In this document: positions 1,504 through 43,677 of the stretch, piece by piece
How positions within the stretch are numbered: the stretch's first letter is position 1
How the letters are laid out: each line of letters opens with the position of its first letter
Assembly (NCBI GenBank): GCA_032718475.1
Contig: JAUCBJ010003563.1
Span: 1-54,382, forward strand
Direction: 5' to 3'
Origin: Nemertoderma westbladi
Lineage: Eukaryota; Animalia; Xenacoelomorpha
Length of the DNA: 54,382 nucleotides
Notes under the pieces: generated by a model
The model's input: the letters and a program-made list of their open reading frames with translations, nothing else
Told to the model about the DNA's origin: nothing
Databases searched by the model: none
Position numbers and translations under genes: made by a program

Positions 1504-1601
1504 TATAGCTAACTAGTTAGTTATCAAGGTGTAGTTTTGGTGTTTAACTAACTAACTAGCTGGTTATTTTGGTTATTCTGGTTATATGTTATTTTATATA
1601 C

Positions 1602-1858: not shown

Positions 1859-1994
1859 CTTTATATAAGGTGTATCTTATCTGTAGGAATGTGAGACGTG
1901 CAATCTCTTCAAGAATATTTAAGTGTAGCGCATTTTTTTGCGATTCAATGCATTTCAAATTTATAATCCAAAGTTCTTGGTAAAAAAACTACCA

Positions 1995-3639: not shown

Positions 3640-3850
3640 TAGCAAGATTCAGCTTGAACGGATTAAATCCAAAGAATTGTGAGGACGTTTGGACACGTAG
3701 CCCTCTAGCGGGGGACTATTAAACTGGTGGTGTCTAAAAGTATAAAAAAAATCCCACCTTTTGCTTTTTTGATGTCTACAAATTTTCATCTCGACAGCTT
3801 TAAATCCGACAAAATTACACCATGTCATGAAATAACCTGCAGCGGATGCA
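3640..3850 (-). mobile_element. Fragment of the interspersed repeat family seen at 38491-39488, inverted
   Basis: AGATTCAGCTTGAACGGATTAAA..GCCCTCTAGCGGG matches the reverse complement of CCCGCTAGAGGGC..TTTAATCCGTTTAAGCTGAAACT at ~38760-38840. Confidence 0.6.
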
Positions 3851-4069
3851 AATACATGCAACTTTCAAATGCCCATATATCAGATTCCCCAAACGAATTC
3901 AAATACATTTACAGATTTGGAATCCCAGCACATTACTACTACTGACGCAAAATACAGTATATCGATGGAGACACCCTTTCTAGTGGCTAAGCTAACAATG
4001 AAACCAAAAATAATAATTCTGGCTAACAATCCCCATAACAGATTTGTGGGGCCTCTAAATAAGGAAGAG

Positions 4070-4181
4070 CCAATAGCTGATTGGGTGAACTAATTGGTGA
4101 CGTGTTCCCTTGTTGAATGGTTGGTACACGGGTTTACATAGGCATGTTCCAACACGCTGAATGGGGAAGCCCTATATAAAA
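4070..4181 (+). promoter_or_regulatory. Candidate Pol II promoter (3x CCAAT/ATTGG, TGACGT, TATA box)
   Basis: CCAAT 4070-4074, ATTGG 4080-4084 and 4093-4097, TGACGT 4098-4103, TATATAAAA 4173-4181; about 1 kb upstream of the ZCCHC24-like ATG. Confidence 0.35.
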
Positions 4182-4708
4182 TAGTGTTAATGTTTGTTTG
4201 TTTTGATTTTATTATTGTGGTAATAATAATAAGTTTATTTAGATTCATAAAATTAATAACGGTATTAGACTTCCCATTTGGGATTAAATGCAATGCAGCC
4301 CCGTTTAGTATATACTGTAAAGCCTACTATACTTCAACAATAATTCAATAAGTGTCTTGTAGCTTAAGGTTTATAATGGTTGTAGTTTTGTTGGTTTGCG
4401 ACTTTTACACTAAAAAATATAAGCATATTATTATGTGATGCACATTCCGGTATCTTTAAACTTTAACTATAAAACAACAAAAACTCTCAAACACTAAAGT
4501 CTGATGTCATTGAATTTGTAAAAATTAGTCTGTTTAGATTAGAATCTTTAGCGTCCGGACTTCTGTACATCGCAGCAGATGTTATGGCCAATTACGCTAC
4601 GCCGAAAATCGACAGCCGACAACGATAACTGACGTTAAAACGTTTGAATAACGTTTATTGTTTTGGTTAGAATAACCTTCCACTCTAACCTTAACCTGTT
4701 CCTTTCCA

Positions 4709-5193: not shown

Positions 5194-6639
<1,446 letters not shown>

Positions 6640-7863
6640 AATGCCACGGAAGACCGGAAGTTGTCCCCAATATATCGGGACTCATTTATACGTAGTTTTC
6701 TTCCTGAATAAAATGATTGCGAATTCTATGTACGAGGAACCGTAGTTGTGACCTCGAATTGAACATTTCTGTATTTTAATGTTTTTAATAAATAAATAAT
6801 GTATATAGTTTTAATTGTTTTTATACTGTGTAGCCTAAATTGTTTTAATTTTAGACATTTTACATTATGCTTGTGCAATATATGCCCATTTAAAAAGATT
6901 TTACTTCTAAATATTTTTATGCAATACACCAGTGCAATATCTTTATTAAACTGGAATAATGTCTCAATATATTCTTATTATAAAGATCAATTTAAATATC
7001 ATTCTACCAAGCTTTTTCATTATTACATCATACAGTAGGTACATGTACGTATCAACGTAGGGTTTATAGAAAAAGAAAAAGAATTATTTTGTACAAATTG
7101 AAAGACTACGAAGTCATACAAGTGTTATACAAGTCATTTCATTGGTATTTACTAAACCCGTTGTCAGGGAAACTGTTAAAATTTGTGCCACAAAAACGAC
7201 CAAAAGTATAATTTAATATCGATAACACGCGCATCCCGCATGGATTTTGAATGTAAATAGTTTTGCAGTTTAAACCGTAAAATATTTCAAATAATTAATA
7301 TACCTGTAAGGTATTAATTATTGATCAAGTGGGCAAGATACGTAGATCTTTTAATAAAATAATTTCCATATTTTCTCCACAATAAAACCGTAACTGCAAC
7401 AAAAAAAGTAGGCCTAGTCTTATTATATAATCCTATTCTTGTTGTTACTCATATTGGTAGCGCAATAGTTAGTAGTCTCATTATTATAATGGTAAAAAAA
7501 TTTAATTTAAGTTTTTTTAAACTTTCAGTTTTCAAACTACATGTTGGATAGGAATCCATCCATCGTTGTGTATATTACAGTATTTTTGAAAAGTATGTTC
7601 TATCAAATGTTTGTTTAATTGTGTCTGGAGGTTTACTTTTGGAGTGGAGATCCGCCACTGAGTTTTCCAATATCGACTCACTTATAGAATCTTTACGGTT
7701 TATTGTAGATAATTAATTTAATTAACTCCATCAATTTATTGTAAAACATCATTATAATTCATTGTCATTGTTCATTGTGGACAAGAAATTACTTAAAAAG
7801 ATTCAATATAACGGACATTAAAACTTGGCGCTAACAGTTCTTTGTTACACGGTTATTGTTTTG

Positions 7864-7984
7864 GTTGCCAAACAACCGTAATAATCTAAGGCAACTCGAA
7901 ACCCAAGCCAACAACAATGAGTGAGCCAAATCAATCGAACTAGCATTGTATGCAATAATGACAGGGAGTGGTTTCCATGGCCAC
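7864..7984 (+). promoter_or_regulatory. Candidate RFX X-box promoter of the dynein gene
   Basis: GTTTCCATGGCCAC (7971-7984) is one mismatch from the X-box GTTTCCATGGCAAC; GTTGCCAAACAAC at 7864; further X-box-like words at 7160-7173 and 9015-9028. RFX control of ciliary genes is established. Confidence 0.5.
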
Positions 7985-8148
7985 GAAATATACAACAACC
8001 TAGAATTTACTGAGGAAATTAATCGAACATTGTGTCGCTTCTCTGTGCGGGTAGCTAGTAGTTTAATTGTAATTAATAAGCTGCCGCCGGTAACTACGTG
8101 GTATTTGTCGGTTGTGGTTGATATCCTGCTGGAAAATCGTCTTTCGAG

Positions 8149-9060
8149 GTAAAAATAAATTATTTTTATTTTGGTTACACCACCGTTTTAGATACGTGTA
8201 ATAATTTTATTTATAATGCAGCTTACAATGATTTCTATTTTTTCCCTATTCGACTATTATTAAAGTGATACGGGTTATACAGTTACAGGAGCTTATATAG
8301 GGAAGGCAAGAAAGAGATGTACCACACCTTGAGGTGTACCATATCTAACATAAGTCTATTATGCCAATTATTGTCGAGTCACACAGTACACTACTTACAT
8401 TATAAAGCAACATGAAATATTTGAAAAAGGTAGTATTTTTATAAATATAATCAGAAAATTTTTTTTTTTTGATAGTAGTCATGTCAGACCACTTGCTTGT
8501 GCAAACGTACACAGAAATACATAATTTTCTTGCTCTGGAACTCATTCTGAACTACTGTATAAAATTAGCATCGACCACGCTAATGGTTATTCTTCAACGT
8601 GAAGAAATATATCATATTTCCATCTTACACTCTAGGCCTATAATATGTTACCTAATATAAAAAAACTTAAAATTTAAGTTTAAATTTTTTTTTTATTTTA
8701 TTTATATACCGGTATTATATTTATTTTAAAAATAGCTAGTGTTTTAAAAAAATACTAGCTACCGTAAAAAGTATTATTTTGAATCAATGTAGATTACATT
8801 CTAGAACAATATATGAAAATCAAAAGAGCTCTTGCTAGTGTTAAAAAAAATACTGGGAGTTGATGTGCGCAGTAGTACAGCAGTGATACGGACATGCTTT
8901 ATGAAAATATTGATGCCGATGGTGGCACAATGCTACTGGGTTTAGTAAACTGGTACGGAGACACTGGGATTACCAAATTGGTACAAGGAGGCAGTGTTTA
9001 GTAAGTTGATTATTGTTGTCATAGTTACCTAACATACAAATTTTTATATAATTATTTTAG
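8149..9060 (+). other. Probable 5'-UTR intron of the dynein gene (alternative donor at 9001)
   Basis: Donor GAG/GTAAAA at 8149, second donor GTAAGT at 9001, branch-like CCTAAC at 9028, acceptor TTATTTTAG ending 9060, 48 nt before the ATG; composition becomes GC-richer after 9060. Confidence 0.5.
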
Positions 9061-9108
9061 TGATCACGATTACTTGCGTTATCGGCGAAACGAAAGGCGC
9101 AGAGCAAA

Positions 9109-12100
9109 ATGGGGTCCGAAGCGCCAGTGGACGCACGAGTGGATTTCATGTCGGAATATACTCTGAAATCTCTGAAAGTAAAACCGGACAAATGGGCTAA
9201 ACTTATCAACGTGGAGGAAAATCGGATAATGATCCAGGACTTTCTGGATAAGGGCCAGCAACCGGCACTGGTGCTCGTAGCAAACAGCGCTGGTATGCTA
9301 ACGTGCGGTTACGAGTGGCCGTCCCAGCCCAAAACCAAGGCCGTTTATTTCATCAAGAGGTCTCCGAAAGATCCAATCCCCAAGGACAGCTACCGCAGCG
9401 CCTTGACCTACGGTGACCTTAGTTACATGCCTCTGGATCAATTGGCGGCTGTGGTTGACGAAGTCTTGGTTCCGCTGCTCTCCAACGACAATAACCACGA
9501 ACAATGGCCGGCCGTCGTCTCGCAGGACGTACTTCGCCACGTTCACAATCTAAAATCCAATGTTTTTGTCGTCTCTGGGAAAGTGAAAGGGAAGACTTTA
9601 CTGCCCCTGCCGGTTGGAAGTGAGAAAGTCGAGGAATGCAGGGTCGATGACGAGAAAGGGGATTTTGAGAGGAATATAATACACGCGATCGAATCCGTTG
9701 TCATTGAATGGAGTCACCAGATACACGATGTCCTTAAGAAAGATTCATCACAGCCACTACTCGATGGCCTAAATCCAACGCCTTTTTACGAACTTGAGTT
9801 CTGGAAGTCGAAATCGACCAATCTAGAATGTATCTACGACCAGCTGAGAGATCCAAAAGTTCGTAAAATGGCGGAACTACTAGAGAAGTCTGATAGTAGT
9901 TACTTCCAAGCGTTTAGAAACATATTTCGCGAGGTCATAGCTGCACTTACCGAAGCCCAAGATATCAATTTACATTTGAAACCTCTGCAGCGGCATTTAG
10001 AGGACCTTGAGCAAGCTGATTACGCTGAGATTATCCAATTCATTGAACCTCTGATGCACGTTATGGGTTTGATCTGGGGAAGTTCGAAGTATTACTGTTC
10101 GGCTCCGAGAATTATTGTATTGCTGCAAGAAGTCTGTAATCAACTGATAGAATTAACCCGCAACAGTCTGGATCCTCATGAAATCTTGAAAGGGGAAGTC
10201 GAAGAATGCATCGAAAGGGTTGACCATGCTCTCAAGGTTATTGATGCATTCAGAGACCAGTACAACCAAAAGAAGGACAATATATCCCAATATTTCCGTG
10301 ATGGAAATCCCGTCTACGAATGGGACTTCCATGACATGCTTGTTTTTGCGCGGATGGACGGTTTCAGAAATAGACTTCGAATTATTCGGGAACTGTTCGA
10401 GACGAATATCGAATTTATGAAGTTGGAGAAAGTAGAATTGGGTGGTTTAAAAGGAAAAATGTTAAGCGCTCAGGTTGTACAAATATTTGAGGAATTTCAG
10501 GAATATTTCAAAATATTTACAGACCAGAACTATGACACTTTAGATCCTACTAATACCGAGTTTATGAACGATTACTTTAAGTTCAAAACACATGTTGATG
10601 ACTTGGACCGAAGGCTGGCATCCATAGCATGTTTGGGATTTGATGATTGTTCAAATAGTGAGACAGTATTCAAGATGATCAATGTGTTTGGTACCTTGCT
10701 AGAACGACCTCTTATAAAAGTAGACTTTGTCAACAAATTTCCGCTCTTAATCGACATGTTTTGCAAAGATCTTGATAATGCCAAAGTCATTTACGACAAG
10801 CAGATGAAAGATAGACAAGAGAATTACGCACCTGTTCACAAAAACTTGCCTTGGGTTAGTGGGCAACTGAAGTGGTCCCGCGAATTAAAAGAACGTATTT
10901 CAATACCGTATGAAGGATTTAACCACGTCCACCACCCCTATGAAGAATCACAAGAAGCCAAAGATATGGTAGTCAAATATGATGAGATGATTGCACTTCT
11001 AGACAATTATGAGGTCTTAGTCTACAATGAATGGACGCAAAGTGTTACCGAAAAGAGTAACTACAATTTAGACCAACCCTTGATTACAAGAAACAATGAA
11101 ACCAATTTGATAAGCGTTAATTTTGATCCTCAACTTGTATCTGTTTTGCGTGAAGTTAAATATTTGAAGATTCTGGAATATGAAGACATTCCAGGCAGTG
11201 CTAATGATATGTTTGAAAAAAATACAACATACGTTAAATTTGTTGACAATCTTAGTCTTACTGTTGGATGGTACAATAAGACTCGTACAACTGCAATTGA
11301 AGTCGAGTTACCTTTAATTGAAGAGCAACTACAAAATATTGACACTCAATTACAGAAAGCCGAGTCACAGTTGAACTGGAAAAATGATAGCGCATGGGAA
11401 TACATTCAGCAAACGAGTGACATGGTTCAGGATCTTGAAAGTCGTTTACAGAAATCCAAAAACAATGTAGAAAAGATGCAGACAATAATGGCGGAATGGT
11501 GTAAAGTTCCATTGTTTGAAAGAAAGGAGGGTAAAAATGAGACAGTGCTGAATCTCGATGATCGGGAGGATCGATTGGCTAAGAGATACGGCGATATCAA
11601 AACCGATGCCGAGAATATTCATAAAATAGTCCAAGAGAACCTTGAACTTTTCAAAGCGGATGGTAGTTCCGAAATGTGGAAAAACTATCTGGACTACCTC
11701 GATGAAATGGTTATTGATGGGCTGTTCAAGTGCCTTGAAAGCTCATTGAACTATTTACTCGAAAATACAGATTCAAAGACTGTAATTGCATCATTATTTT
11801 TAAGTAAATTAGAACTGCAAATGCCAGAAATGGTTTTTGTGCCTGGGTTAGAACTTGGAGACATTCTTGGCCTATACGAAATCATCGAAGGTGTGCTCCT
11901 AGATATTTATAAAATTAGTACCTTAGTACCTAGGATTGCCAAGCATAGAGAGAATGAGGACTATAAAGCTGACATGGAAGACATGTTAGATCTGTCAGAC
12001 ATGAAGCAGGAACTGATGGAAAGAGTTCAAAACGCAATGGCAAAGGCAATTGAGTATCGCAACACGTTTGAGCAATATGCATATTTGTGGGTAGATGATC

Positions 12101-15100
12101 GGCAAGAATTTATGCGGCAGTTCCTGCTGTATGGACATGTGTTAACCGCAGAAGAAATTGAAGCGAATGCTGAGGAAGGTGTGCCGGAGACACCTCCTAC
12201 ACTCGATAAATATAAAGAACAAATAGATGTCTATGAAACATTATACACCGAAGTAGAAGCAATCGACGGAACAAATGTGATGGATCAATGGCTACGAATT
12301 GATGCTCGACCATTTCGTCAAGCCTTATTGAATGTAATAAAACGATGGAGTTTGATGTTTAAACAACACCTTGTTGACCACATAACTAACAGCCTTGCAG
12401 ATCTTGAGGCGTTTATCAAGGTTTCTAATGCTGGTCTAAGTAAACCAGTTCATGAGGGCGAGTATAATGAGTTAGTGGAATGCATGGCCCATCTAATGGC
12501 TGTCAAGGAAAGACAAGCTGCAACTGATGAAATGTTTGAACCATTAAAACAGACTATAGAGCTTTTAAAGACATATGGCCAGGAGATGTCGGACCATGTA
12601 CACACCCAATTGCAGGAGCTGCCTGAACAATGGGCAAATAACAAAAAGATTGCAGTAACATGCAAACAGGCAGTGGCTCCACTCCAAGCCAATGAGGTTG
12701 CAATTGTTAGAAGGAAATGTGCTTCCTATGATGTAAAACAGCATGAGTTAAGGGAGAGATTCCGACAGGAAGCGCCTTTAAGATATTCCACAGCACATCC
12801 ATATGCAATGCTAGATAAAGAGCATCTCATTATCAGGGATATGGAAATAGAAATGTCCGCATTACAAGAATCAGCAAATTTATTTGAAGTTAATGTTCCA
12901 GAATATAAGCAACTGAAGCAATGCCGAAAAGAAGTTGTTTTGCTTAAAAGGCTTTGGGATATGGTTAATTTGGTTAATTCATCACTTGATGAGTGGAAAA
13001 CAACATTATGGGCGGAAATAAATGTAGAATTTATGGAAATGGAGTGTAAGAAGTTCGCAAAAGATATTCGTCTATTGGATAAAGAGATGAGAGCATGGGA
13101 TACCTATTCTGGTGTAGAAAATTCCGTTAAAAATATGTTGACATCACTGCGAGCTGTCAGTGACTTGCAAAATCCTGCAATAAGGGAAAGGCATTGGCAA
13201 CAGTTAATGCAGGCTACTCAAGTGAAATTTGTAATGGATGACACTACAACTTTAGCTGATTTACTGGCTTTGAATCTACATGAATATGAGGATGAAGTTA
13301 GAAATATTGTTGACAAAGCTGTGAAAGAGAGTGGTATGGAAAAGGTTCTTGGAGAACTTGATAATACTTGGGTAAACTTAGAATTTGAGTATGAGGAACA
13401 CCCTAGAACTCAAATTCAGTTATTAAAGGTTAGTGAAGAATTAATAGAGACTTTAGAAGACAATCAAGTCCAACTACAGAATATGATGACTTCGAAATAC
13501 ATTGCTCATTTCCTGGACCAAGTAAGTTATTGGCAAGGAAAGTTGTCAATGGCTGATCAAGTGATAGGAATTTGGATGGAAGTCCAACGAACCTGGAACC
13601 ACTTGGAATCAATCTTCATTGGTTCTGATGACATAAGGAAACAGTTGCCTGAAGACTCAAAACGGTTTGATAGTGTTGATACTGATTTTAAGGAGTTAGT
13701 TGATGGGATGAGTAAAACGCCAAATGTTGTGGAAGGTACAAATAAAGGAGGGCTCTATGAGAAGCTGGAGAATTTGCAAGGCCAACTCGTACTATGTGAA
13801 AAAGCTCTTGCCGAATATTTAGAAACAAAGCGTCTCGCATTCCCACGATTCTACTTTATTTCCCCCGCAGATCTACTTGACATTCTATCACAAGGCAACA
13901 GTCCAAGATTAGTCGCAAAACATCTGGCGAAATTGTTTGATAATATGGGCGATTTGGAATTCACCACAAAGGATTCTAAGACAGCCAAAGGGATGTTTTC
14001 AAAGGAAAAAGAATATGTAGCATTTGATAAAACCTGTGAGTGCACAGGTCCGGTTGAAAACTGGCTAAATTCTGTTCAAGATTCGATGAGATCAACTGTC
14101 AGACACTGGATGACTGATGCGGTCATTTCATATGAGGAGAAACCAAGAGAACAATGGTTGTTCGATTTTTGTGCTCAGGTTGCATTAACCACAACCCAGA
14201 TATGGTGGACAACTGAAGTTAATATAGCATTTGGCCGATTGGAGGAAGGGTATGAGAATTCAATGAAAGATTACAACAAAAAGCAAGTCACTCAACTAAC
14301 TCATTTAATTAATCTGCTACTTGGAAACCTAACTAAAGGTGATCGGCAGAAAATTATGACGATTTGCACAATCGATGTCCATGCTAGAGATGTCATTGCT
14401 AAATTAATCACGTTGAAGGTTGATAACAGTCAGGCTTTTACTTGGTTATCACAATTGAGACACCGATGGGACGATGAGGAGAAACATTGTTATGCCAATA
14501 TTTGCGATGCTTGTTTCAAATATAGTTATGAGTACTTAGGTAACACACCACGTCTGGTTATTACACCACTCACTGACAGATGTTACATTACACTGACTCA
14601 AGCACTTCATCTAACTATGAGTGGAGCGCCAGCTGGTCCAGCTGGAACAGGTAAAACTGAAACCACAAAGGATTTGGGCAGAGCTTTGGCAATTATGGTC
14701 TATGTATTCAATTGCTCGGACCAAATGGATTACAAGAGTTGTGGTAACATCTACAAGGGTCTCAGTCAGACCGGTGCTTGGGGGTGTTTCGACGAGTTTA
14801 ACCGAATATCCGTGGAGGTCTTGTCTGTCATAGCTGTTCAGGTGAAATCTATTCAAGATGCGATTCGTGACAAAAAGTCGATATTTAATTTCCAGGGTGA
14901 AACAATTTCACTAGTTCCAACAGTTGGTATATTCATAACCATGAACCCAGGTTACGCTGGGAGAGCCGAACTCCCAGAGAATCTAAAGGCATTGTTTAGA
15001 CCATGTGCTATGGTTGTACCTGACTTTGAATTAATTTGCGAAATTATGTTGGTGGCAGAGGCATTTTTTGAAGCTAGGCTATTAGCTAGAAAGTTTATCA

Positions 15101-18100
15101 CACTATATACATTATGCAGAGAGTTGTTAAGTAAACAAGACCATTATGATTGGGGTTTGCGAGCTATAAAATCTGTATTAGTGGTTGCCGGGGCTTTGAA
15201 ACGTAGTGACCCAACAAGACCCGAAGACCAGGTTCTTATGAGAGCCCTCCGAGATTTTAATGTTCCCAAAATTGTCACAGAAGATATGGCGATTTTCATG
15301 GGTTTAATAGGTGATCTATTTCCAGCCTTGGATGTACCGAGAAAGAGGAATCCTGATCTTGAAAAACAAATAAAACAAACAGTATTAGATAATAAATTAC
15401 AGCCGGAAGATAACTTTATACTGAAAATAGTTCAGTTGGAGGAATTACTAGAAGTACGTCACTCCGTTTTTGTTCTCGGCAATGCAGGAACAGGAAAATC
15501 CCAAGTAATTAAATCCCTACACAACACCTATAAAGCACAGAAGAAGAAAGCAATTATGCAGGATATTAACCCTAAAGCAATTGTTGCTGATGAACTATTC
15601 GGTTGCATTAATCCGGCCACTAGAGAATGGAAAGACGGCGTATTCTCCATAGCGATGAGAGATTTGGCCAATCTTACACACGATGGTCCAAAGTGGATTG
15701 TTTTGGATGGTGATATTGATCCCATGTGGATTGAGTCCCTAAATACTGTAATGGATGACAATAAAGTATTAACACTGGCTAGCAATGAACGTATTGCTCT
15801 TTCTAACAGCATGAGATTACTTTTTGAAATTGGTCACTTAAAAACAGCAACACCTGCGACAGTATCTCGTGCCGGCATTCTATTTCTTAACCCTCAAGAC
15901 TTGGGGTGGAATCCGGTTGTACAGAGTTGGATAGATGCCAGAGAGGTTCAATCAGAGAAAGCTAATCTTACCATTTTATTTGATAAGTATGTCCCCCCAG
16001 CCCTAGATTGCCTAAAATTCAGGTTCAAAAAAATTACACCAATATCTGAATCTTCACATATTATGATGCTGTTGTATTTACTCAATGTTCTGCTAACTCC
16101 AGAAAATACACCACCTGATTGCCCCAAAGAACTATACGAACTTTATTTTGCCTTTGCTTGTGTGTGGGCCTTTGGGTCGACAATGTTTCAAGATCAACTC
16201 GTCGATTACCGAGTGGAATTCTCCAAATGGTGGACAAATGAATTTAAAACGATAAAATTCCCCTCACAGGGGACAGTATTTGATTATTTCATCGACACTG
16301 AAAATAAGAAACTGGAACCATGGACAAAAATAATTGACCCATTTGAACACGATCCTGATATCCCACTATCTGCGCTTTTAGTGAATACAGCTGAGACAAC
16401 ACGAGTTAGGTACTTCATGGACCTTCTCATGAAAGAACGTCGGCCAGTTATGCTCGTTGGTAGCGCAGGTTCAGGTAAGACTATGGTTATCAATGACAAA
16501 CTCCAATCTCTAAATCCTGATGAATATGTTATTCAAAATGTGCCCTTCAACTTCTACACAACAAGTGCCATGTTGCAAGGGGTACTGGAGAAAAAATTAG
16601 AGAAAAAAGCTGGTCGCAATTATGGACCCCCTGGTGCAAAGAAAATGGTGTATTTTATTGATGATATGAACATGCCAGAGGTTGATACATATTTTACAGT
16701 TCAGCCACATACACTGCTGCGTCAGCACATGGATTACAGTCATTGGTACGACCGTCAAAAACTCACCATCAAAGATATTCACAATGTTCAATATGTGTCT
16801 TGCATGAATCCCACGGCAGGTAGTTTCACCATCAATTCAAGACTTCAACGCCATTTCTCAGTGTTTGCTGTGAGTTTTCCAGGACAGGATGCCCTTTATA
16901 CTATATACAGCAGCATACTCTCAGGTCATTTCACTGTGAACAATTTCCCACCACACATAATCAAGGCAACACCGAATATCACAAACGCTGTGTTGGGAAT
17001 GCACCAGAAAATAGCATCAACTTTCCTTCCCACCGCTATCAAATTTCACTATATTTTTAATCTGAGAGACTTAACAAACGTATTTCAGGGATTCCTTTTC
17101 TCATCGCCTGAGTGCATAAAAACGCCAATGGACATCGGCCGAATTTGGCTCCATGAAATGGATCGTGTTTACTGTGATAAACTAGTGGATGAAGCTGATG
17201 GAGAGTTGTACAACAAACTTCGGATGGAACAGGGCAAGAAATACTTTGAGGACTTAAATGAGGATGAATTGTTTGCGAAGCCTTTAATTTATACACATTT
17301 CGCAACAGGTATAGGGGAACCGAAATATATGCCCATTGTAGCCTGGAAAGACCTTCTTAAACTATTGCAAGATGCCCTAGACAGTTATAATGAATTGAAC
17401 GCCGTTATGAATCTCGTGCTGTTTGAGGATGCTATGAGTCACATATGCCGCATAAACAGGATTATCGAATCCCCAAGAGGCAATGCTTTGCTTGTTGGCG
17501 TTGGGGGTTCAGGGAAACAATCTCTCTCGAGGTTAAGTGCCTACATTAGTAGTTTGGAACCGTTCCAAATTGTTCTGCGAAAAGGATATATGCTTGCAGA
17601 CTTGCGAATAGATCTTGCTGCTCTTTACCAGAAAGCTGGTGTAAAGAATCTTGGCATTGTTTTCCTTATGACTGACGCACAGGTTGCCGATGAAGGATTC
17701 TTAGTTTTAATCAATGACTTGCTGGCATCAGGAGAAATTCCCGATCTGTTTTCAGATGATGAAACACAAAATATAATAGGAGCTATGCGACCAGAAGTAA
17801 AATCAATTGGACTCCCTGATACCATTGAGAACTGCTGGCGATTTTTCATCGATAGAGTGAGACGCAACCTGAAGGTGGTACTTTGCTTTTCGCCCGTTGG
17901 ATCCACGTTGAGAGTGCGTGCAAGGAAATTTCCTGCTGTAGTAAACTGTTCGCAAATAGACATGTTCCACGAGTGGCCCCAAGAGGCGCTAATCAGTGTA
18001 AGCCGTCGGTTCTTGGCTGATTTAGATCTATTGGAAGACGATGTGAAAAATTCCGTATCGGATTTCATGTCATATGTCCATACCAGCGTTAATGAAATGA

Positions 18101-21100
18101 GTAAAACTTACTTACAAAATGAAAAAAGATACAATTACACAACCCCGAAGAGCTTCTTAGAACAAATCGCTCTTTACAGAAACCTTCTTGGCACGAAACA
18201 TAAAGAGTTGATTGCAAAAATGGAACGGTTAGAAAATGGGTTACAGAAACTGGAAAGCACCGCATCACAAGTGGATGATCTCAAAGAAAAGCTTGCAGCA
18301 CAAGAAATCGAGCTTGGGCAAAAGAATGAAGATGCTGATAAATTAATTCAAGTTGTTGGTAGAGAAACTGAAATTGTTTCCAAGGAAAAGGGAATTGCCG
18401 ATGAAGAGGAAGCTAAGGTTCAGGTGATTACCGAAGATGTTGGCGTAAAAGCAAAGGCATGTGAAGAAGATCTTGCGAAGGCTGAACCTGCCTTAAGGGC
18501 GGCACAGGAAGCTTTGAACACACTAAACAAAGGTAACTTGACGGAGTTGAAGTCGTTTGGTAGTCCGCCACCTGCAGTAGTTAATGTTGTTGCAGGTGTG
18601 ATGGTATTAATTTTGGGAGGTACTTCCGGGAAAGTCCCTAAAGATAGGAGCTGGAAAGCTGGTAAGGTTATGATGGGAAAGGTTGACGATTTTCTCAACA
18701 GTCTTATTTATTATGATAAAGAGCACATTCACGATAATGCAGTTAAAGCAATGAAGCCTTATGTTAGTGATCCAGAATTTGATCCTGAGTTTATTCGTAG
18801 TAAATCGTTGGCTGCAGCTGGGTTGTGTTCGTGGGCGATTAACATCATTAAGTTTTATGAGGTTTACTGTTTCGTAGAGCCCAAGCGATTGTCTCTGGAA
18901 GCTGCCAATGCCGAGCTCAATGCTGCTCAAGATAAGCTGGCAAAGATCAAAGAAAAAATTTCTGAATTAGACGAAAGTTTAGGGAAACTGACAGCTGAGT
19001 TTGAGCATGCCACTTCAGAAAAGTTGAAGTGCCAACAGCAAGCTGATGCAACTGCCCTAACAATTAACTTGGCTAACCGTCTTGTTGGTGGTTTGGCATC
19101 TGAAAAGGTAAGATGGGGAGAATCCGTAAGAATGTTTAAGGAACAAGCAATAACACTACCCGGTGACATTTTAACTATTACAGCTTTTGTTTCGTACGTC
19201 GGTTGCTTCACTAAAACGTATCGAACAGAGTTGACTGATAATAATTGGACGCCGTTCCTCAAGGCCCAGGCCGTTCAAATTCCCCGCACACCCAATCTAG
19301 ATCCCCTTACAATGTTGACTGATGGTGCATCTATAGCAACGTGGAACAACGAAGGTCTTCCAAATGACCGAATGTCCATTGAAAATGCAACAATCCTTGT
19401 CAATGCCGAAAGGTGGCCACTTATTATAGACCCCCAACTCCAAGGTATCAAATGGATGAAAACAAGGTATGGGGATGCATTAAAACTTGTGCGACTGGGT
19501 CAACGAGGTTATTTAGATGTTGTTGAAAGAGCAATTTCTAATGGAGATGTTGTACTTTTTGAAAATATTGGAGAAAACGTTGACCCTGTTCTTGACCCCC
19601 TTCTTGGCCGGAACACCATAAAAAAGGGTACGGCAATCAAGATGGGTGACAAGGAAGTTGAGTATAACAAAGATTTCAGATTAATTTTGCACACCAAATT
19701 GGCCAATCCCCATTACAAACCCGAAATGCAGGCTCAGACTACATTGATAAACTTTACAGTAACAATTGATGGTCTTGAAGATCAATTACTGGCCGAAGTA
19801 GTTAAATCAGAGAGACCAGATTTAGAAGAGTTAAAGGTGCAACTCACACTGCAGCAAAACCAGTTTAAGATAACATTGAAGGAGTTGGAAGACAGTCTGT
19901 TAGCACGATTGTCAGCCGCTGGGGGCAATTTCTTGGGAGACACGGAATTAGTTGAGAATCTTGAAACAACAAAGAAAACCGCTCAGGAAATAGAAGAAAA
20001 GGTGAAATTAGCTGAAGTAACAGAAGTGGAAATCAATGAAGCAAGAGAGCACTATCGGCCTGCAGGGGCCCGGGGCTCTTTACTCTACTTTATTCTCAAC
20101 GATCTTAACAAAATAAACCCACTCTACCAATTTTCTCTAAAGGCATTCAACGTTGTATTTAATGTTGCCTTTGAAAGAGCCGAACAATCGGAGGAAGTTA
20201 AGGTCAGAATCATCAATCTTATAGACTCCATCACCTACAGTGTATTTAACTACACTAGTAGAGGTCTCTTTGAAAAAGATAAACTTATATTTTCTACACA
20301 GTGTGTATTCCAGATTTTACTTCATAGTAAAGAGATTGCGAAGCCGGAACTTGATTTCCTATTGCGATTTCCTGCAAAGGCTGATATGACGTCACCCGTG
20401 GATTTCTTGGCCAATCATAGTTGGGGTGCTATAAAAGCATTGTCTGACATGGAGGAGTTTAATAATCTGGATAGAGATATTGAGGGTTCAGCTAAACGAT
20501 GGAAAAAATTCGTTGAATCAGAAACTCCGGAAAATGAAAAATTCCCCCAAGAGTGGAAGAACAAGACGAGTTTGCAGAAGTTGTGCATAATGCGATGTTT
20601 GAGACCAGATCGGATGACCTACGCATGTACAGGTTTTGTAGAAGAAAAATTAGGGAGCAAATATGTTGAAGCTCGTTCAATAGAATTTGCCACATCGTTT
20701 GATGAGTCGGGACCTGCGACTCCTATGTTTTTTACGCTCTCGCCAGGTGTCGATCCTCTCAAAGATGTTGAAGCACATGGCAAGAAACTAGGGTTTACTT
20801 TGGATTCTGGGAAATTCCACAATGTATCGTTGGGTCAAGGTCAAGAAATAGTGGCGGAAAACAGCCTGGACCGTGCTTCACAAGAAGGTCACTGGGTCAT
20901 TCTGCAGAATGTGCATTTAGTTGCAAAGTGGCTGCCAATATTGGAGAAAAAGTTGGAGCAATACTCGGAGGGTTCGCATGACGATTACAGGGTGTTTATA
21001 AGTGCAGAGCCGGCCCCAACACCAGAATCACATATAATTCCACAGGGAATCTTGGAAAACGCCATTAAAATAACAAACGAACCACCAACAGGAATGAAAC

Positions 21101-22491
21101 CGAACATCAGAAAAAGTATGGACAACTTCAATCAAGACACCATGGAAATGTGCGCTAAAGAGGCCGAATTCAAAACCATATGGTTTGCCCTCAATTACTT
21201 CCATGCCGTTATATTGGAACGGAGAAAGTTTGGAGCTCAAGGTTGGAACAGGTCTTACCCATTCAACGACGGTGATCTTACAATCAGCGTCAACGTTCTC
21301 TACAATTACCTCGAAAATAACAACAAAGTCCCGTGGGAGGATCTCAGGTACCTATTCGGTGAGATTATGTACGGAGGGCACATCACAGACGACTGGGACA
21401 GGAGGTTGTGTCGCACTTATCTGGAGGAGTACATCAACCCGGAACTCGTCGACGGAGAGTTGGCTCTCGCCCCGGGATTCCTCACCCCGCCGAATTCCGA
21501 TTTCAACGGATACCACACGTACGTGCTCGAGAACATGCCGGCGGAGTCGCCCAATCTCTACGGAATGCATCCGAATGCGGAGATAAACTTCCTCACGCAG
21601 ACTTCGGATGCGATGTTCCATACGGTACTGGAGATGCAGCCGAGGGACACTGGTGGAGGAGCTGGTGGTGTAGTCAGCAAGGATGAGAAGGTCAAACAGA
21701 TACTCGACGATATCATGGAGCGCCTACCCGAGGAGTTTAATATGGTCGAGATCATGGGTAAAGTCGAAGATAAGACGCCATACGTGGTGGTAGCCTTCCA
21801 GGAGTGCGACCGAATGAATACACTAACCAATGAAATGAAACGAACACTGAAGGAGTTAGACCTAGGACTGAAAGGCGAGTTGACGATAACATCCGATATG
21901 GAGGATTTATCGAACTCGTTGTACCTCGACGTGATCCCGGAGGTGTGGAACCGACGCGCCTACCCGTCGACCAGCGGTCTCAGTATCTGGTTCGCGGATC
22001 TCCAGCAAAGGATCAAAGAGTTAGAGAATTGGACCACGGATCTCAGCATGCCTAATACCATGTGGTTGGGCGGCCTCTTCAACCCGCAGTCCTTCCTCAC
22101 CGCCATTATGCAGTCGTTGGCTCGTAAGAACGAGTGGCCGCTGGATAAGATGGCTCTATCGTGTGACGTCACCAAAAAGAATCGCGAGGATTTTGGGTCT
22201 CCCCCGCGAGAGGGCGCCTACGTCTTCGGGTTGTTTATGGAGGGCGCGAGATGGGACATACAGACTGGGGTTATCAGCGAATCGAAACTGAAAGAATTAA
22301 CACCTGCGATGCCTATAATATTCGTAAAAGCACTTCCATTAGATAAGTTGGAGACGCGTAACATGTACGGCTGTCCGGTCTACAAGACGAAGATAAGAGG
22401 ACCGACATTTGTCTGGACATTTAATCTGAAGACGAAGGAGAAAGCGAGTAAATGGATTGTTGCCGGAGTAGCCTTGTTGCTAAGCGTTTAA
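9109..22491 (+). CDS. DNAH9/DNAH17: Axonemal dynein heavy chain, outer-arm beta type (DNAH9/11/17 clade, 'dynein beta chain, ciliary'), 4460 aa, single coding exon
   Basis: Uninterrupted ORF with P-loops GPAGTGKT (14635), GNAGTGKS (15478), GSAGSGKT (16459) and GVGGSGKQS (17497); motifs YEYLGNTPRLVITPLTDRC, WGCFDEFNRI, LSKQDHYDWGLR, NPHYKPE; stalk coiled coils; C-terminal CPVYKT..GVALLL. The exact paralog cannot be resolved without a tree. Confidence 0.97.
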   Translation: MGSEAPVDARVDFMSEYTLKSLKVKPDKWAKLINVEENRIMIQDFLDKGQQPALVLVANSAGMLTCGYEWPSQPKTKAVYFIKRSPKDPIPKDSYRSALTYGDLSYMPLDQLAAVVDEVLVPLLSNDNNHEQWPAVVSQDVLRHVHNLKSNVFVVSGKVKGKTLLPLPVGSEKVEECRVDDEKGDFERNIIHAIESVVIEWSHQIHDVLKKDSSQPLLDGLNPTPFYELEFWKSKSTNLECIYDQLRDPKVRKMAELLEKSDSSYFQAFRNIFREVIAALTEAQDINLHLKPLQRHLEDLEQADYAEIIQFIEPLMHVMGLIWGSSKYYCSAPRIIVLLQEVCNQLIELTRNSLDPHEILKGEVEECIERVDHALKVIDAFRDQYNQKKDNISQYFRDGNPVYEWDFHDMLVFARMDGFRNRLRIIRELFETNIEFMKLEKVELGGLKGKMLSAQVVQIFEEFQEYFKIFTDQNYDTLDPTNTEFMNDYFKFKTHVDDLDRRLASIACLGFDDCSNSETVFKMINVFGTLLERPLIKVDFVNKFPLLIDMFCKDLDNAKVIYDKQMKDRQENYAPVHKNLPWVSGQLKWSRELKERISIPYEGFNHVHHPYEESQEAKDMVVKYDEMIALLDNYEVLVYNEWTQSVTEKSNYNLDQPLITRNNETNLISVNFDPQLVSVLREVKYLKILEYEDIPGSANDMFEKNTTYVKFVDNLSLTVGWYNKTRTTAIEVELPLIEEQLQNIDTQLQKAESQLNWKNDSAWEYIQQTSDMVQDLESRLQKSKNNVEKMQTIMAEWCKVPLFERKEGKNETVLNLDDREDRLAKRYGDIKTDAENIHKIVQENLELFKADGSSEMWKNYLDYLDEMVIDGLFKCLESSLNYLLENTDSKTVIASLFLSKLELQMPEMVFVPGLELGDILGLYEIIEGVLLDIYKISTLVPRIAKHRENEDYKADMEDMLDLSDMKQELMERVQNAMAKAIEYRNTFEQYAYLWVDDRQEFMRQFLLYGHVLTAEEIEANAEEGVPETPPTLDKYKEQIDVYETLYTEVEAIDGTNVMDQWLRIDARPFRQALLNVIKRWSLMFKQHLVDHITNSLADLEAFIKVSNAGLSKPVHEGEYNELVECMAHLMAVKERQAATDEMFEPLKQTIELLKTYGQEMSDHVHTQLQELPEQWANNKKIAVTCKQAVAPLQANEVAIVRRKCASYDVKQHELRERFRQEAPLRYSTAHPYAMLDKEHLIIRDMEIEMSALQESANLFEVNVPEYKQLKQCRKEVVLLKRLWDMVNLVNSSLDEWKTTLWAEINVEFMEMECKKFAKDIRLLDKEMRAWDTYSGVENSVKNMLTSLRAVSDLQNPAIRERHWQQLMQATQVKFVMDDTTTLADLLALNLHEYEDEVRNIVDKAVKESGMEKVLGELDNTWVNLEFEYEEHPRTQIQLLKVSEELIETLEDNQVQLQNMMTSKYIAHFLDQVSYWQGKLSMADQVIGIWMEVQRTWNHLESIFIGSDDIRKQLPEDSKRFDSVDTDFKELVDGMSKTPNVVEGTNKGGLYEKLENLQGQLVLCEKALAEYLETKRLAFPRFYFISPADLLDILSQGNSPRLVAKHLAKLFDNMGDLEFTTKDSKTAKGMFSKEKEYVAFDKTCECTGPVENWLNSVQDSMRSTVRHWMTDAVISYEEKPREQWLFDFCAQVALTTTQIWWTTEVNIAFGRLEEGYENSMKDYNKKQVTQLTHLINLLLGNLTKGDRQKIMTICTIDVHARDVIAKLITLKVDNSQAFTWLSQLRHRWDDEEKHCYANICDACFKYSYEYLGNTPRLVITPLTDRCYITLTQALHLTMSGAPAGPAGTGKTETTKDLGRALAIMVYVFNCSDQMDYKSCGNIYKGLSQTGAWGCFDEFNRISVEVLSVIAVQVKSIQDAIRDKKSIFNFQGETISLVPTVGIFITMNPGYAGRAELPENLKALFRPCAMVVPDFELICEIMLVAEAFFEARLLARKFITLYTLCRELLSKQDHYDWGLRAIKSVLVVAGALKRSDPTRPEDQVLMRALRDFNVPKIVTEDMAIFMGLIGDLFPALDVPRKRNPDLEKQIKQTVLDNKLQPEDNFILKIVQLEELLEVRHSVFVLGNAGTGKSQVIKSLHNTYKAQKKKAIMQDINPKAIVADELFGCINPATREWKDGVFSIAMRDLANLTHDGPKWIVLDGDIDPMWIESLNTVMDDNKVLTLASNERIALSNSMRLLFEIGHLKTATPATVSRAGILFLNPQDLGWNPVVQSWIDAREVQSEKANLTILFDKYVPPALDCLKFRFKKITPISESSHIMMLLYLLNVLLTPENTPPDCPKELYELYFAFACVWAFGSTMFQDQLVDYRVEFSKWWTNEFKTIKFPSQGTVFDYFIDTENKKLEPWTKIIDPFEHDPDIPLSALLVNTAETTRVRYFMDLLMKERRPVMLVGSAGSGKTMVINDKLQSLNPDEYVIQNVPFNFYTTSAMLQGVLEKKLEKKAGRNYGPPGAKKMVYFIDDMNMPEVDTYFTVQPHTLLRQHMDYSHWYDRQKLTIKDIHNVQYVSCMNPTAGSFTINSRLQRHFSVFAVSFPGQDALYTIYSSILSGHFTVNNFPPHIIKATPNITNAVLGMHQKIASTFLPTAIKFHYIFNLRDLTNVFQGFLFSSPECIKTPMDIGRIWLHEMDRVYCDKLVDEADGELYNKLRMEQGKKYFEDLNEDELFAKPLIYTHFATGIGEPKYMPIVAWKDLLKLLQDALDSYNELNAVMNLVLFEDAMSHICRINRIIESPRGNALLVGVGGSGKQSLSRLSAYISSLEPFQIVLRKGYMLADLRIDLAALYQKAGVKNLGIVFLMTDAQVADEGFLVLINDLLASGEIPDLFSDDETQNIIGAMRPEVKSIGLPDTIENCWRFFIDRVRRNLKVVLCFSPVGSTLRVRARKFPAVVNCSQIDMFHEWPQEALISVSRRFLADLDLLEDDVKNSVSDFMSYVHTSVNEMSKTYLQNEKRYNYTTPKSFLEQIALYRNLLGTKHKELIAKMERLENGLQKLESTASQVDDLKEKLAAQEIELGQKNEDADKLIQVVGRETEIVSKEKGIADEEEAKVQVITEDVGVKAKACEEDLAKAEPALRAAQEALNTLNKGNLTELKSFGSPPPAVVNVVAGVMVLILGGTSGKVPKDRSWKAGKVMMGKVDDFLNSLIYYDKEHIHDNAVKAMKPYVSDPEFDPEFIRSKSLAAAGLCSWAINIIKFYEVYCFVEPKRLSLEAANAELNAAQDKLAKIKEKISELDESLGKLTAEFEHATSEKLKCQQQADATALTINLANRLVGGLASEKVRWGESVRMFKEQAITLPGDILTITAFVSYVGCFTKTYRTELTDNNWTPFLKAQAVQIPRTPNLDPLTMLTDGASIATWNNEGLPNDRMSIENATILVNAERWPLIIDPQLQGIKWMKTRYGDALKLVRLGQRGYLDVVERAISNGDVVLFENIGENVDPVLDPLLGRNTIKKGTAIKMGDKEVEYNKDFRLILHTKLANPHYKPEMQAQTTLINFTVTIDGLEDQLLAEVVKSERPDLEELKVQLTLQQNQFKITLKELEDSLLARLSAAGGNFLGDTELVENLETTKKTAQEIEEKVKLAEVTEVEINEAREHYRPAGARGSLLYFILNDLNKINPLYQFSLKAFNVVFNVAFERAEQSEEVKVRIINLIDSITYSVFNYTSRGLFEKDKLIFSTQCVFQILLHSKEIAKPELDFLLRFPAKADMTSPVDFLANHSWGAIKALSDMEEFNNLDRDIEGSAKRWKKFVESETPENEKFPQEWKNKTSLQKLCIMRCLRPDRMTYACTGFVEEKLGSKYVEARSIEFATSFDESGPATPMFFTLSPGVDPLKDVEAHGKKLGFTLDSGKFHNVSLGQGQEIVAENSLDRASQEGHWVILQNVHLVAKWLPILEKKLEQYSEGSHDDYRVFISAEPAPTPESHIIPQGILENAIKITNEPPTGMKPNIRKSMDNFNQDTMEMCAKEAEFKTIWFALNYFHAVILERRKFGAQGWNRSYPFNDGDLTISVNVLYNYLENNNKVPWEDLRYLFGEIMYGGHITDDWDRRLCRTYLEEYINPELVDGELALAPGFLTPPNSDFNGYHTYVLENMPAESPNLYGMHPNAEINFLTQTSDAMFHTVLEMQPRDTGGGAGGVVSKDEKVKQILDDIMERLPEEFNMVEIMGKVEDKTPYVVVAFQECDRMNTLTNEMKRTLKELDLGLKGELTITSDMEDLSNSLYLDVIPEVWNRRAYPSTSGLSIWFADLQQRIKELENWTTDLSMPNTMWLGGLFNPQSFLTAIMQSLARKNEWPLDKMALSCDVTKKNREDFGSPPREGAYVFGLFMEGARWDIQTGVISESKLKELTPAMPIIFVKALPLDKLETRNMYGCPVYKTKIRGPTFVWTFNLKTKEKASKWIVAGVALLLSV

Positions 22492-22501
22492 AACAATCAA
22501 C

Positions 22502-22517
22502 AATAAACTCTAATAAA
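22502..22517 (+). terminator. Tandem AATAAA polyadenylation signals of the dynein gene
   Basis: AATAAA at 22502 and 22512, followed by a T-rich tract at ~22550-22580. Confidence 0.5.
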
Positions 22518-23156
22518 AGTATCAACAGTAATCTATTGAAAGACGCAAACTGTTTTTTATATATTTTTTATTGTTTTTTAGTTGGTAATTATTAATTGCT
22601 TAGAATAATTTGGTTTTCAGCACTTTTTACTTATATATTTGTTAACTTGTAAAAATGTAATTTAGAAATAATACAGTTTAAAAAATAATTGAAACTTAAT
22701 TATTCAATTTATGGGAGTTATTATTTTGGAATTTTACAAAAACACTAATCAGTTCTACGAAAATTCTTTGGTTCGGATCCAAACACTTTTTTGAGTTTTC
22801 ATCTCAAGAGATACTAGCAAAAATGTGTTGCTAGCTCTACAAAAATAAACCGTTAATGAACACGCAAGACAATATATAACACTAAAAAAATTTAAATTCA
22901 TTATAGAACGTCCGCTGCAGAATGTTGTATTCCTATTAACTACAGATTTATGTGACTTGGTATTGGTAGTTTTTCGATATCAGTAGAGAGCTATGATGAT
23001 GGGCCGAGATCAGAAATACGTAATCTGACAATCGACTTTTTTTAAACGAGTAAACTTAAAAAGAAATTAAAAAAAAACGATTTAAAATGTAATTGACCGT
23101 TGTGTAATTATTATTAATTTCATAAAGTTAAAGACAAAACCCCCCCAACAGACCCC

Positions 23157-23364
23157 CTAATGTAACCAAGCCAAGAGACTAGTCCCATTCTCTGTTGGAA
23201 GTGGACAGAGATCGAATGGATTTGGCTGAGGTTTTCCGCTGCACAATCTTACTCCTGGATGGCGCAAACAGCGCTGTGGTTTAGGTTTGCAACAACTGGG
23301 TCTCTCGTTCTCGCTATCCCCTGTCCCAAGAAGTTTTGTATCCGGGATATCTTGGAAATTGAAC
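23157..23364 (-). CDS. Speedy/RINGO-like gene, terminal coding exon (RFNFQDIPD..LLAWLH*)
   Basis: Acceptor TTGCTTCAG; phase 2 matches the previous exon; open to TAG at 23159-23157. Confidence 0.65.
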
Positions 23365-26300
23365 CTGAAGCAAATTAAAATAATAATAATTAAAACTAAA
23401 ATAATACATTGTTTATGTAAAAACTATGTGAAATTGTTACTATTTCGCTCAAATATACACAAAATCGGGAAAAAATGTTTCTCTATTTTACCTAGGGAAA
23501 AAAGGTAACCCATAGGATAGCGTTGATATTACTTTTTTTCTCGGCGAATAAAGTAAAATAAAATATTTTTGGTGCTGAATTTCTCAAACTTTATTACATA
23601 TGTTTAAAAAACATTGAAGTAGAAAAGGTTTGCACGTAATTTGAGCAAAATTCGTTCACAAACTTAAAAGTTATTGCAACTATACTGCCGTCAGAAGGTA
23701 TAGAACACCCTATCTCTATCTGGGCAAATCTTGGGTGCTCTTTCTCGTGGTGTTGTCCGTTTTACTGCATCTCCACCAGTTACAGGTCTCAACATCGTGA
23801 AAAATACTATATGCTATATACTACTATGTATATTACAGTAATACGTATTTGGATATTAAATAATGTTCTGGAACATTCCTAAGGAGTAATATAGAGGTAC
23901 AATAAGAAATTAACCACCATAATAGCACATTCAAACAGGGCGACTAAGAGAAACAGGACGACTATTAGAATGAACGAACAGGGAGTTGTTAACCGGAAAT
24001 GGTGATGGGCCAGGTTTGCTTGGAGGTATGTCGGAAGTAGATGGAGTGGGTGGACAGGGGATGTCGGAGGTAGATGGAGTGGGTGGACAGGGGATGTCGG
24101 AAGTAGATGGAGTGGGTGGACAGGGGATGTCGGAGGTAGATGGAGTGGGTGGACAGGGGATGTCGGAAGTAGATGGAATGGGTGGACAGGGGATGTCGGA
24201 AGTAGATGGAGTGGGTGGACAGGAGATGTCGGAGGTAGATGGAGTGGGTGGACAGGGGATGTCGGAGGTAGATGGAGTGGGTGGACAGGGGATGTCGGAA
24301 GTAGATGGAGTGGGTGGACAGGGGATGTCGGAGGTAGATGGAGTGGGTGGACAGGGGATGTCGGAGGTAGATGGAGTGGGTGGACAGGGGATGTCGGAGG
24401 TAGATGGAGTGGGTGGACAGGGGATGTCGGAGGTAGATGGAGTGGGTGGACAGGGGATGTCGGAGGTAGATGGAGTGGGTGGACAGGGGATGTCGGAGGT
24501 AGATGGAGTGGGTGGACAGGGGATGTCGAGAGGTAGATGGAGTGGGTGGACAGGGGATGTCGGAGGTAGATGGAGTGGGTGGACAGGGAGTATGTCGTAG
24601 GTAGATGGAGTGGGTGGACAGGGGATGTCGGAGGTAGATGGAGTGGGTGGACAGGGGATGTCGGAGGTAGATGGAGTGGGTGGACAGGAGATGTCGGAGG
24701 TAGATGGAGTGGGTGGACAGGGAGATGTCTGAGGTAGATGGAGTGGGTGGACAGGGGATGTCGGAGGTAGATGGAGTGGGTGGACAGGGATGTCGGAGGT
24801 AGATGGAGTGGGTGGACAGGGGATGTCGGAGGTAGATGGAGTGGGTGGACAGGGGATGTCGGAGGTAGATGGAGTGGGTGGACAGGGGATGTCGGAGGTA
24901 GATGGAGTGGGTGGACAGGGGATGTCGGAGGTAGATGGAGTGGGTGGACAGGGGATGTCGGAGGTAGATGGAGTGGGTGGACAGGGGATGTCGGAGGTAG
25001 ATGGAGTGGGTGGACAGGGGATGTCGGAGGTAGATGGAGTGGGTGGACAGGGGATGTCGGAGGTAGATGGAGTGGGTGGACAGGGGATGTCGGAGGTAGA
25101 TGGAGTGGGTGGACAGGGGATGTCGGAGGTAGATGGAGTGGGTGGACAGGGGATGTCGGAGGTAGATGGAGTGGGTGGACGGGGATGTCGGAGGTAGATG
25201 GAGTGGGTGGACAGGGGATGTCGGAGGTAGATGGAGTGGGTGGACAGGGGATGTCGGAGGTAGATGGAGTGGGTGGACAGGGGATGTCGGAGGTAGATGG
25301 AGTGGGTGGACAGGGGATGTCGGAGGTAGATGGAGTGGGTGGACAGGGGATGTCGGAGGTAGATGGAGTGGGTGGACAGGGGATGTCGGAGGTAGATGGA
25401 GTGGGTGGACAGGGGATGTCGGAGGTAGATGGAGTGGGTGGACAGGGGATGTCGGAGGTAGATGGAGTGGGTGGACAGGGGATGTCGGAGGTAGATGGAG
25501 TGGGTGGACAGGGGATGTCGGAGGTAGATGGAGTGGGTGGACAGGGGATGTCGGAGGTAGATGGAGTGGGTGGACAGGGGATGTCGGAGGTAGATGGAGT
25601 GGGTGGACAGGGGATGTCGGAGGCAGATGGAGTGGGTGGACAGGGGATGTCGGAGGTAGATGGAGTGGGTGGACAGGGGATGTCGGAGGTAGATGGAGTG
25701 GGTGGACAGGGGATGTCGGAGGTAGATGGAGTGGGTGGACAGGGGATGTCGGAGGTAGATGGAGTGGGTGGACAGGGGATGTCGGAGGTAGATGGAGTGG
25801 GTGGACAGGGGATGTCGGAGGTAGATGGAGTGGGTGGACAGGGGATGTCGGAGGTAGATGGAGTGGGTGGACAGGGGATGTCGGAGGTAGATGTGAGTGG
25901 GTGGACAGGGGATGTCGGAGGTAGATGGAGTGGGTGGACAGGGGATGTCGGAGGTAGATGGAGTGGGTGGACAGGGGATGTCGGAGGTAGATGGAGTGGG
26001 TGGACAGGAGATGTCGGAGGTAGATGGAGTGGGTGGACAGGGAGTATGTCTGAGGTAGTTGGAGTGGGTGGACAGGGGATATCGGAGGTAGATGGAGTGG
26101 GTGGACAGAGGATGTCGGAGGTAGATGGAGTGGGTGGACAGGGGATGTCGGAGGTAGATGGAGTGGGTGGACAGGGGATGTCGGAGGTAGATGGAGTGGG
26201 TGGACAGGGGATGTCGGAGGTAGATGGAGTGGGTGGACAGGGGATGTCGGAGGTAGATGGAGTGGGTGGACAGGGGATGTCGGAGGTAGATGGAGTGGGT

Positions 26301-43635: not shown

Positions 43636-43677
43636 AATTATATATATTTATATATATAATTATAAATTATTTATTAT

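Follow-up and report, generated by a model that had tools for sequence, protein, structure and literature searches.

Here, analysis of a 54,382-nucleotide stretch of Nemertoderma westbladi DNA (assembly GCA_032718475.1, contig JAUCBJ010003563.1; hereafter the window) revealed a dynein beta gene that is genomic and transcribed and consists of two exons, the second of which carries the entire coding sequence (CDS). We consider it probable that recombination with reverse-transcribed copies of its own mRNA stripped this gene, block by block and at its original locus, of some 70–80 coding introns, within a genome-wide process.

A two-exon outer-arm dynein gene

The open reading frame spans positions 9109–22491 of the forward strand and runs from an ATG start to a TAA end through 4,460 amino acids without an internal stop; a stop-free frame of 4,460 codons has a chance probability of about 1e-131 at the composition of the window. 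The exon structure was derived from contigs of an RNA-like run (X4), which was classed as RNA solely by its spliced joint and its A tail, as no run carries an RNA label. In X4, a non-coding 5′UTR exon (8102–8148, forward strand, where 8102 is the first base of the contig and not a mapped transcription start) is followed directly by position 9061. The 912-nt GT..AG intron that is thereby skipped (8149–9060, forward strand) lies in the 5′UTR, is the sole intron seen in the gene, and is present unspliced in runs X1 and X2. Exon 2 (9061–22688, forward strand) comprises the remaining 5′UTR, the whole CDS, and the 3′UTR up to the A-tail site, where 17 A's close the X4 contig at 22688. The skipping of 8149–9060 together with this tail therefore defines a two-exon gene with a second exon of about 13.6 kb. 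The A tail could instead reflect oligo-dT priming on a short A-rich genomic stretch; a genomic A tract 3′ of 22688 was looked for in the window and was not found. The 3′ contig of X4 lacks one base at 18631 and two at 19034, which are probably contig errors. X1 and X2 are DNA-like runs from two studies, one of which may be the source of the assembly itself, and both carry the frame and its flanks without an inserted intron (X1 contigs at 6720–18542 and 18601–22656; X2 contigs at 8184–15464, 15475–21272, and 21304–23313). The breaks of each run are bridged by the other. The earlier note had held that the frame could be an artefact if genomic sequence failed to cross its junctions with the flanks; both runs cross both flanks, but the whole gene lies on no single listed contig.

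The predicted protein possesses a complete domain set from DHC_N1 through Dynein_C (Pfam), including DHC_N2, the stalk, and the C-terminal domain, with the P-loops of AAA1 (14635–14658), AAA2 (15478–15501), AAA3 (16459–16482), and AAA4 (17497–17520) all encoded on the forward strand. The frame, the Pfam domains, and the X1/X2 contigs thus agree with the earlier description of a 13,383-nt CDS free of stops and introns, with four P-loops and both termini; the accompanying description as an intronless gene holds for the CDS but not for the gene, which keeps its 5′UTR intron. The top matches among solved structures were DNAH17 (6,803 bits) and DNAH9 (6,629 bits), with other vertebrate-named classes at 2,532 bits or less, and the top database matches were animal proteins annotated as 'dynein beta chain, ciliary', the best reaching 61% over the first 700 residues. 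The protein is 66–72% identical to 37 beta chains of other animals. In a FastTree phylogeny of 38 beta chains (37 of 120 database matches plus the window protein, and beta chains exclusively), the protein grouped with that of the acoel Convolutriloba with a support of 0.999, as would be likely for a xenacoelomorph-type worm, although long-branch attraction is possible; COX1, when used for lineage placement, gave a best match of 58% and was uninformative. Judged from its sequence, the protein is an ordinary DNAH9/11/17-type outer-arm beta heavy chain. Members of this family use ATP to slide the microtubules of the axoneme in cilia and sperm, and the axonemal outer arm is the predicted site of the protein, its function being assigned from family knowledge. 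In domain order and length it resembles human DNAH9, DNAH17, and DNAH11, which, in the accessible portions of the sources, have 69, 81, and 82 exons, respectively (PMC7896388, PMC9186109, PMC11389119), compared with two here and the CDS in one. A weak X-box-like site lies about 130 nt 5′ of exon 1 (7971–7984, forward strand; one mismatch to the RFX consensus). As proof of a retained ciliary promoter it was rejected, since the window holds six matches, at least six occurred in 9 of 100 shuffles, and controls have it too.

No other outer-arm beta dynein gene was found in the assembly, which may be incomplete (9,163 contigs, about 400 Mb, with contig ends truncating some genes). A motor-domain search for a second beta-type copy returned 29 matches on 19 contigs, none of them beta-like, with the highest identity (65%) confined to short exons. 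A tail-domain search of the assembly for an intron-bearing parent returned matches of 21–28% identity only, and the nearest full-length paralogs are about 33–34% identical to the window protein. Among the 40 variants listed (119 further ones lie beyond these), 22 were coding, of which 20 were silent, with a pN/pS of about 0.02 for this set, supporting purifying selection on the intronless CDS. Of the two alternatives offered earlier, purifying selection or a very recent origin, the former is thus borne out and the latter is not, as no parent was found. The protein carries five private indels in 4,460 residues, which is within the 0–8 of 36 orthologs, whereas the acoel protein has 18. Set against the roughly 70–80 expected intron sites, these five indels suggest, indirectly, that intron loss was precise. 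In nearly all of the 19 giant frames measured, GC3 and CpG were high at the 3′ end, often high at the 5′ end too, and low in mid-gene, which we infer to reflect long-standing gene-body methylation; the intronless state of the beta gene would, on that reading, be old.

Giant frames and surviving introns across the genome

The same architecture recurs in most dyneins and in many of the other large genes examined, and the earlier possibility of an exceptional retrogene is not supported. Stop-free frames of 2,446–5,139 amino acids were identified on 12 of 19 dynein contigs; three more have frames of 1,397–1,440 amino acids (two meet a contig end and one a frame break), and 4 of the 19 are intron-rich. 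Other families were scored as unbroken where the domain lay within one stop-free frame. All of these tallies, that of the dyneins among them, are per contig with haplotype duplicates included, and are tilted toward unbroken genes by the search ranking. By this measure, the domain was unbroken on 10 of 13 PI3/4-kinase contigs (six with frames of 2,344–3,922 amino acids), 10 of 12 strong HECT contigs (43 weak rows being dropped), 11–12 of 20 SNF2 contigs, 5 of 5 MutS contigs, 13 of 28 kinesin contigs, 3 of 5 MCM contigs, 37 of 55 SLC6 contigs (82 of 140 candidates scored), 2–3 of 18 myosin contigs (65 of 78 candidates scored), and 0 of 8 Wnt contigs. Among Cys-loop receptors, about 75 of 144 matches were unbroken, and ion channels were mixed. 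Frames of 1,727–4,142 amino acids encode mTOR, ATR, SMG1, DNA-PKcs, TRRAP, a HECT ligase (4,142 amino acids), a MyTH4 myosin, an IP3 receptor, and a calcium channel. A further frame, on C4408, is presumably ATM by its N-terminal motif, and a Pfam search at 1e-12 on the part supplied gave no match; the names HUWE1, DNAH10, and DNAH2 are likewise tentative in this genome.

Contamination cannot account for the mix of gene types, because intronless and intron-bearing genes coexist on single contigs (the window, C7236, C6916, and C7209), and a contaminant origin of the intron-rich genes was accordingly rejected. In the window itself, the neighboring Speedy gene, correctly cited earlier as evidence of spliceosomal introns, has, within 29817–30798 on the reverse strand, two exons with Pfam Spy1 matches on both frames, separated by an intron. 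A contig of more than 447 kb (C1846), with chaperonin and COX1 genes stop-free in the standard code, is probably bacterial DNA in the assembly.

Several further observations were made among the giant frames. Large sets of unbroken genes encode Cys-loop receptors, transporters of the SLC6 type, and ion channels with frames of 1,200–1,600 amino acids, often several to a contig. C1889 and C3876 carry two unbroken genes, 75% identical, that we take from their motifs to be cytoplasmic-dynein-1-like. C2009, C1259, and C1605 hold highly divergent dynein-like frames (5,139, 3,339, and 2,779 amino acids) at 20–25% identity to the rest. An otherwise unbroken inner-arm-type dynein has one frame change (C1707:11393-11456), either an assembly error or a broken allele. 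A DNAH10-like giant gene has a single in-frame TGA about three-quarters along its length (C8700:22386-22388), on which X1, X2, and the RNA-like X4 agree, while X3, from a sample shared with X2, has TGG; the likely cause is either a nonsense allele that segregates and continues to be transcribed, or readthrough. A nonsense allele in an exon without downstream junctions would evade junction-dependent decay.

Two genes that keep introns, C7236 and C2074, are of DNAH5 type. In C7236, a single 9.1-kb exon corresponds to human DNAH5 residues ~1292–4342, for which the exon numbering of the PMC11874857 supplement implies about 50 introns in the human gene, and it is followed at the 3′ end of the gene by five GT-AG introns. 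One of these five coincides with the human boundary c.13338+5, and three lie off the human boundaries compared. In the part found of C2074, there are six GT-AG introns of 3.5–10.7 kb, all within a stretch that is intronless in C7236 and C1025; one, at human G2021, coincides with c.6061+1, three of its neighbors appear to agree with human boundaries, and two lie off the boundaries compared. We likewise take c.5882, c.6249, c.6444, and c.13491 to be human DNAH5 boundaries. As splice variants, these four were not found in the PMC11874857 supplement, where c.6249 is entered solely as a missense change in exon 37. One intron position is common to C2074 and its paralog C2054. Another dynein, C540, keeps three introns, two of them at the 3′ end, and one or two introns survive in each of three CCT genes. 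By these comparisons of sequence, we read the introns as lost rather than absent from the start, and the survivors as old. C7236 and C540 were likely changed in place, because a poly(A)-primed retrocopy cannot retain downstream introns, and the same is likely for the half-converted genes in general. The C7236 block beside five survivors indicates that adjacent introns were lost together, in one round or in several. As a possible role of the surviving introns, the hosting of snoRNAs was rejected, since 12 sources gave no Rfam match at the gathering score, a threshold that divergent snoRNAs could escape.

The introns that persist are often swollen, the longest measured among intron-bearing genes reaching 16.7 kb. 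In the dyneins that bear introns, many of these are filled by tandem arrays, and in three cases the repeated unit comprises an exon edge and splice site (46 bp × 12.5 at C7236:20449-21026, 49 bp × 115 at C2074:71565-77184, and 86 bp × 14 at C2054:16865-18068); further dynein introns carry arrays of 100–490 copies. Part of a myosin exon is also present in about 12 tandem 102-bp copies (C9136:136316-137704). A first-look search returned 21,633 reverse transcriptase candidates, of which 148 of the 150 scored are without stops. Tentatively, we propose that the genome holds two kinds of gene, stripped ones with exons of up to 15 kb and ones with introns swollen by tandem repeats, some of which derive from the gene's own splice junctions. 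Swelling would then turn introns into a burden that increases with their number and would favor cDNA-converted alleles, first in the longest and most intron-rich genes (dyneins and PIKKs, for example), in which case introns would have been lost in answer to repeat load and not to genome compaction; that intron load favors stripped alleles is offered as a hypothesis.

Routes of intron loss

In the mechanism that we favor, retroelement reverse transcriptases would copy the mRNA of a gene, and the cDNA would then serve as template for recombination at the gene's own locus, through several rounds of block conversion rather than from one 13-kb transcript. Most dyneins and PIKK-size genes would have gone through the same conversion, genome-wide, and the 5′UTR intron of the beta gene would be its 5′ survivor. 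A single reverse transcript of more than 13 kb, earlier thought to be needed, is unnecessary because partly converted genes exist. Block loss, few scars, the 5′UTR survivor, and many intact reverse transcriptases all speak for cDNA recombination, which the earlier note had already named and which the half-converted genes also support as the likeliest route. Against it, two of the three survivors in C540 and those of C7236 lie at the 3′ end, opposite to the prediction for poly(A)-primed copies; the window gene conforms to a 3′-biased loss, whereas C7236 and C540 retain 3′ introns. The expected germline bias is similarly mixed. Housekeeping families are mostly unbroken and Wnt genes never, but unbroken genes are also numerous among Cys-loop receptors and SLC6 transporters, where family expansions may have multiplied few loss events, and CCT and MCM genes retain some introns. 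Moreover, precise loss is also expected where selection has purged imprecise deletions, as set out in the accessible portion of PMC7738191, and the window gene, taken by itself, would fit an old retrocopy that took the place of its parent as well as a conversion in place.

Such a retro-replacement, in which a copy of the full-length mRNA would have integrated at another site and acquired a promoter and a 5′UTR intron while the intron-rich parent was lost, repeatedly across many genes, is the foremost alternative, although we consider it unlikely. It would account for an intronless coding exon accompanied only by a 5′UTR intron, reverse transcriptase is abundant, and one unbroken SLC6 gene (C7209:52825-54273) has a retrocopy-like placement, on the opposite strand within the bounds of a CCT-family gene that is rich in introns. 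Poly(A)-primed retrocopies nevertheless cannot have normal introns downstream of a giant exon, as C7236 and C540 do, the 3′ end of the window gene is without a genomic A tract (old copies do lose such tracts), and many independent full-length insertions of 7–15 kb would be required, with the parent lost each time. Loss intron by intron over a long branch, by genomic deletion, by the repair of breaks, or by direct RNA-templated repair, and filtered by selection, is likewise improbable in our assessment. The 3′-end survivors that are at odds with simple oligo-A priming would fit it, as would the one or two scattered survivors in CCT genes, and time would have been ample, with no close relative of the lineage among the database matches. 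However, independent losses are unlikely to produce a 50-intron block beside a tail of normal density or the all-or-none split within families (six introns in C2074, none in C7236 and C1025), and junction indels are few.

It is very unlikely that the gene is a recent retrogene and that the fragmented assembly simply lacks its intron-rich parent. Some genes are indeed cut by contig ends among the 9,163 contigs, and only five MCM contigs were found; yet the motor-domain and tail searches, which realized the proposed search for an intron-containing parent, contained no parent exon and no second beta-type copy, variation is silent-biased, the mid-gene dip in CpG and GC3 is common to other giant exons, and the RNA-like contigs match the window copy. 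An assembly artefact or cDNA contamination, for which one could cite the lack of a single spanning contig and a run that may be the assembly's source, can be set aside, since contigs of two studies cross both flanks with the 5′UTR intron unspliced and three DNA-like runs each carry another giant dynein gene on contigs of 15 kb.

Known systems and the window's neighbors

Adjacent co-loss, scarless junctions, 5′ survivors, and an abundance of housekeeping genes are the predictions for reverse transcriptase-mediated loss in the accessible portion of PMC3652778, and the present genome likewise displays adjacent co-loss, few junction scars, a 5′ survivor in the window gene, and loss that is common in housekeeping genes. 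It departs from these predictions in the 3′-end survivors of two dyneins and in its many unbroken neural-type genes, and from the rodent examples tabulated there, with few introns per gene, in a scale of tens per gene and exons of 7–15 kb. The closest animal precedent is the mite Aculops lycopersici (32.5 Mb, nearly transposon-free, 84% intronless), for which the available text of PMC7738191 proposes cDNA recombination, with deletion and retro-replacement also possible. As in Aculops, precise loss here is genome-wide with 5′ survivors; in contrast, this genome of about 400 Mb is rich in reverse transcriptases, has retained intron-rich genes whose introns reach 10 kb and more, and is not streamlined in the Aculops manner (small, few transposons, short non-coding DNA).

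In the portions available of PMC10565955, PMC9911081, and PMC11521371, acoelomorph genomes are large and repetitive with a mean of 3.3–6.4 exons per gene (3.2 introns per gene in Symsagittifera) and longer exons in some genes, nine excretory genes being covered, while Xenoturbella has an ordinary structure with a mean of 8.5 exons. Because acoelomorphs have few exons per gene and Xenoturbella is ordinary, the loss may extend lineage-wide. Giant exons or a two-class architecture were not found in those portions, nor was the term 'intron loss' in those of PMC10565955 or PMC11521371. In a metagenome scan for intron-bearing animal orthologs, the best 80 loci were 55–68% identical and all unbroken over the query, so that they gave no guide to ancestral intron positions. 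Within the open-access literature, neither an axonemal dynein gene without introns in an animal nor 10–15 kb exons across a large animal genome was found to be reported. The protein family, the loss process, and, from the text available, genome-wide loss in Aculops are therefore known; loss on this scale in a genome of about 400 Mb with swollen introns was not found in that literature. Massive intron loss in animals is usually linked to tiny streamlined genomes, and here it occurs in a large repetitive one, in an animal able to express a 13.6-kb exon encoding an ordinary globular enzyme. As one family splits into stripped, half-stripped, and intact genes, routes of intron loss would, given related genomes or tissue RNA, become testable within a single genome by block size, positional bias, germline bias, and gene length.

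Elsewhere in the window, a forward-strand frame at 5209–6639 combines zf-CCHC and 3CxxC matches and is presumably ZCCHC24-like; its coding part includes a 30-bp proline-rich tandem repeat, and 3CxxC is matched over 44 of 45 positions and may extend into another exon. Satellite arrays occupy 24028–27536 (33 bp, 106 copies), 40387–42898 (36/63 bp, 54/15 copies), and 43674–52851 (31 bp, 296 copies), and the 33-bp array, just beyond the 3′ part of the Speedy gene, is open in several frames.
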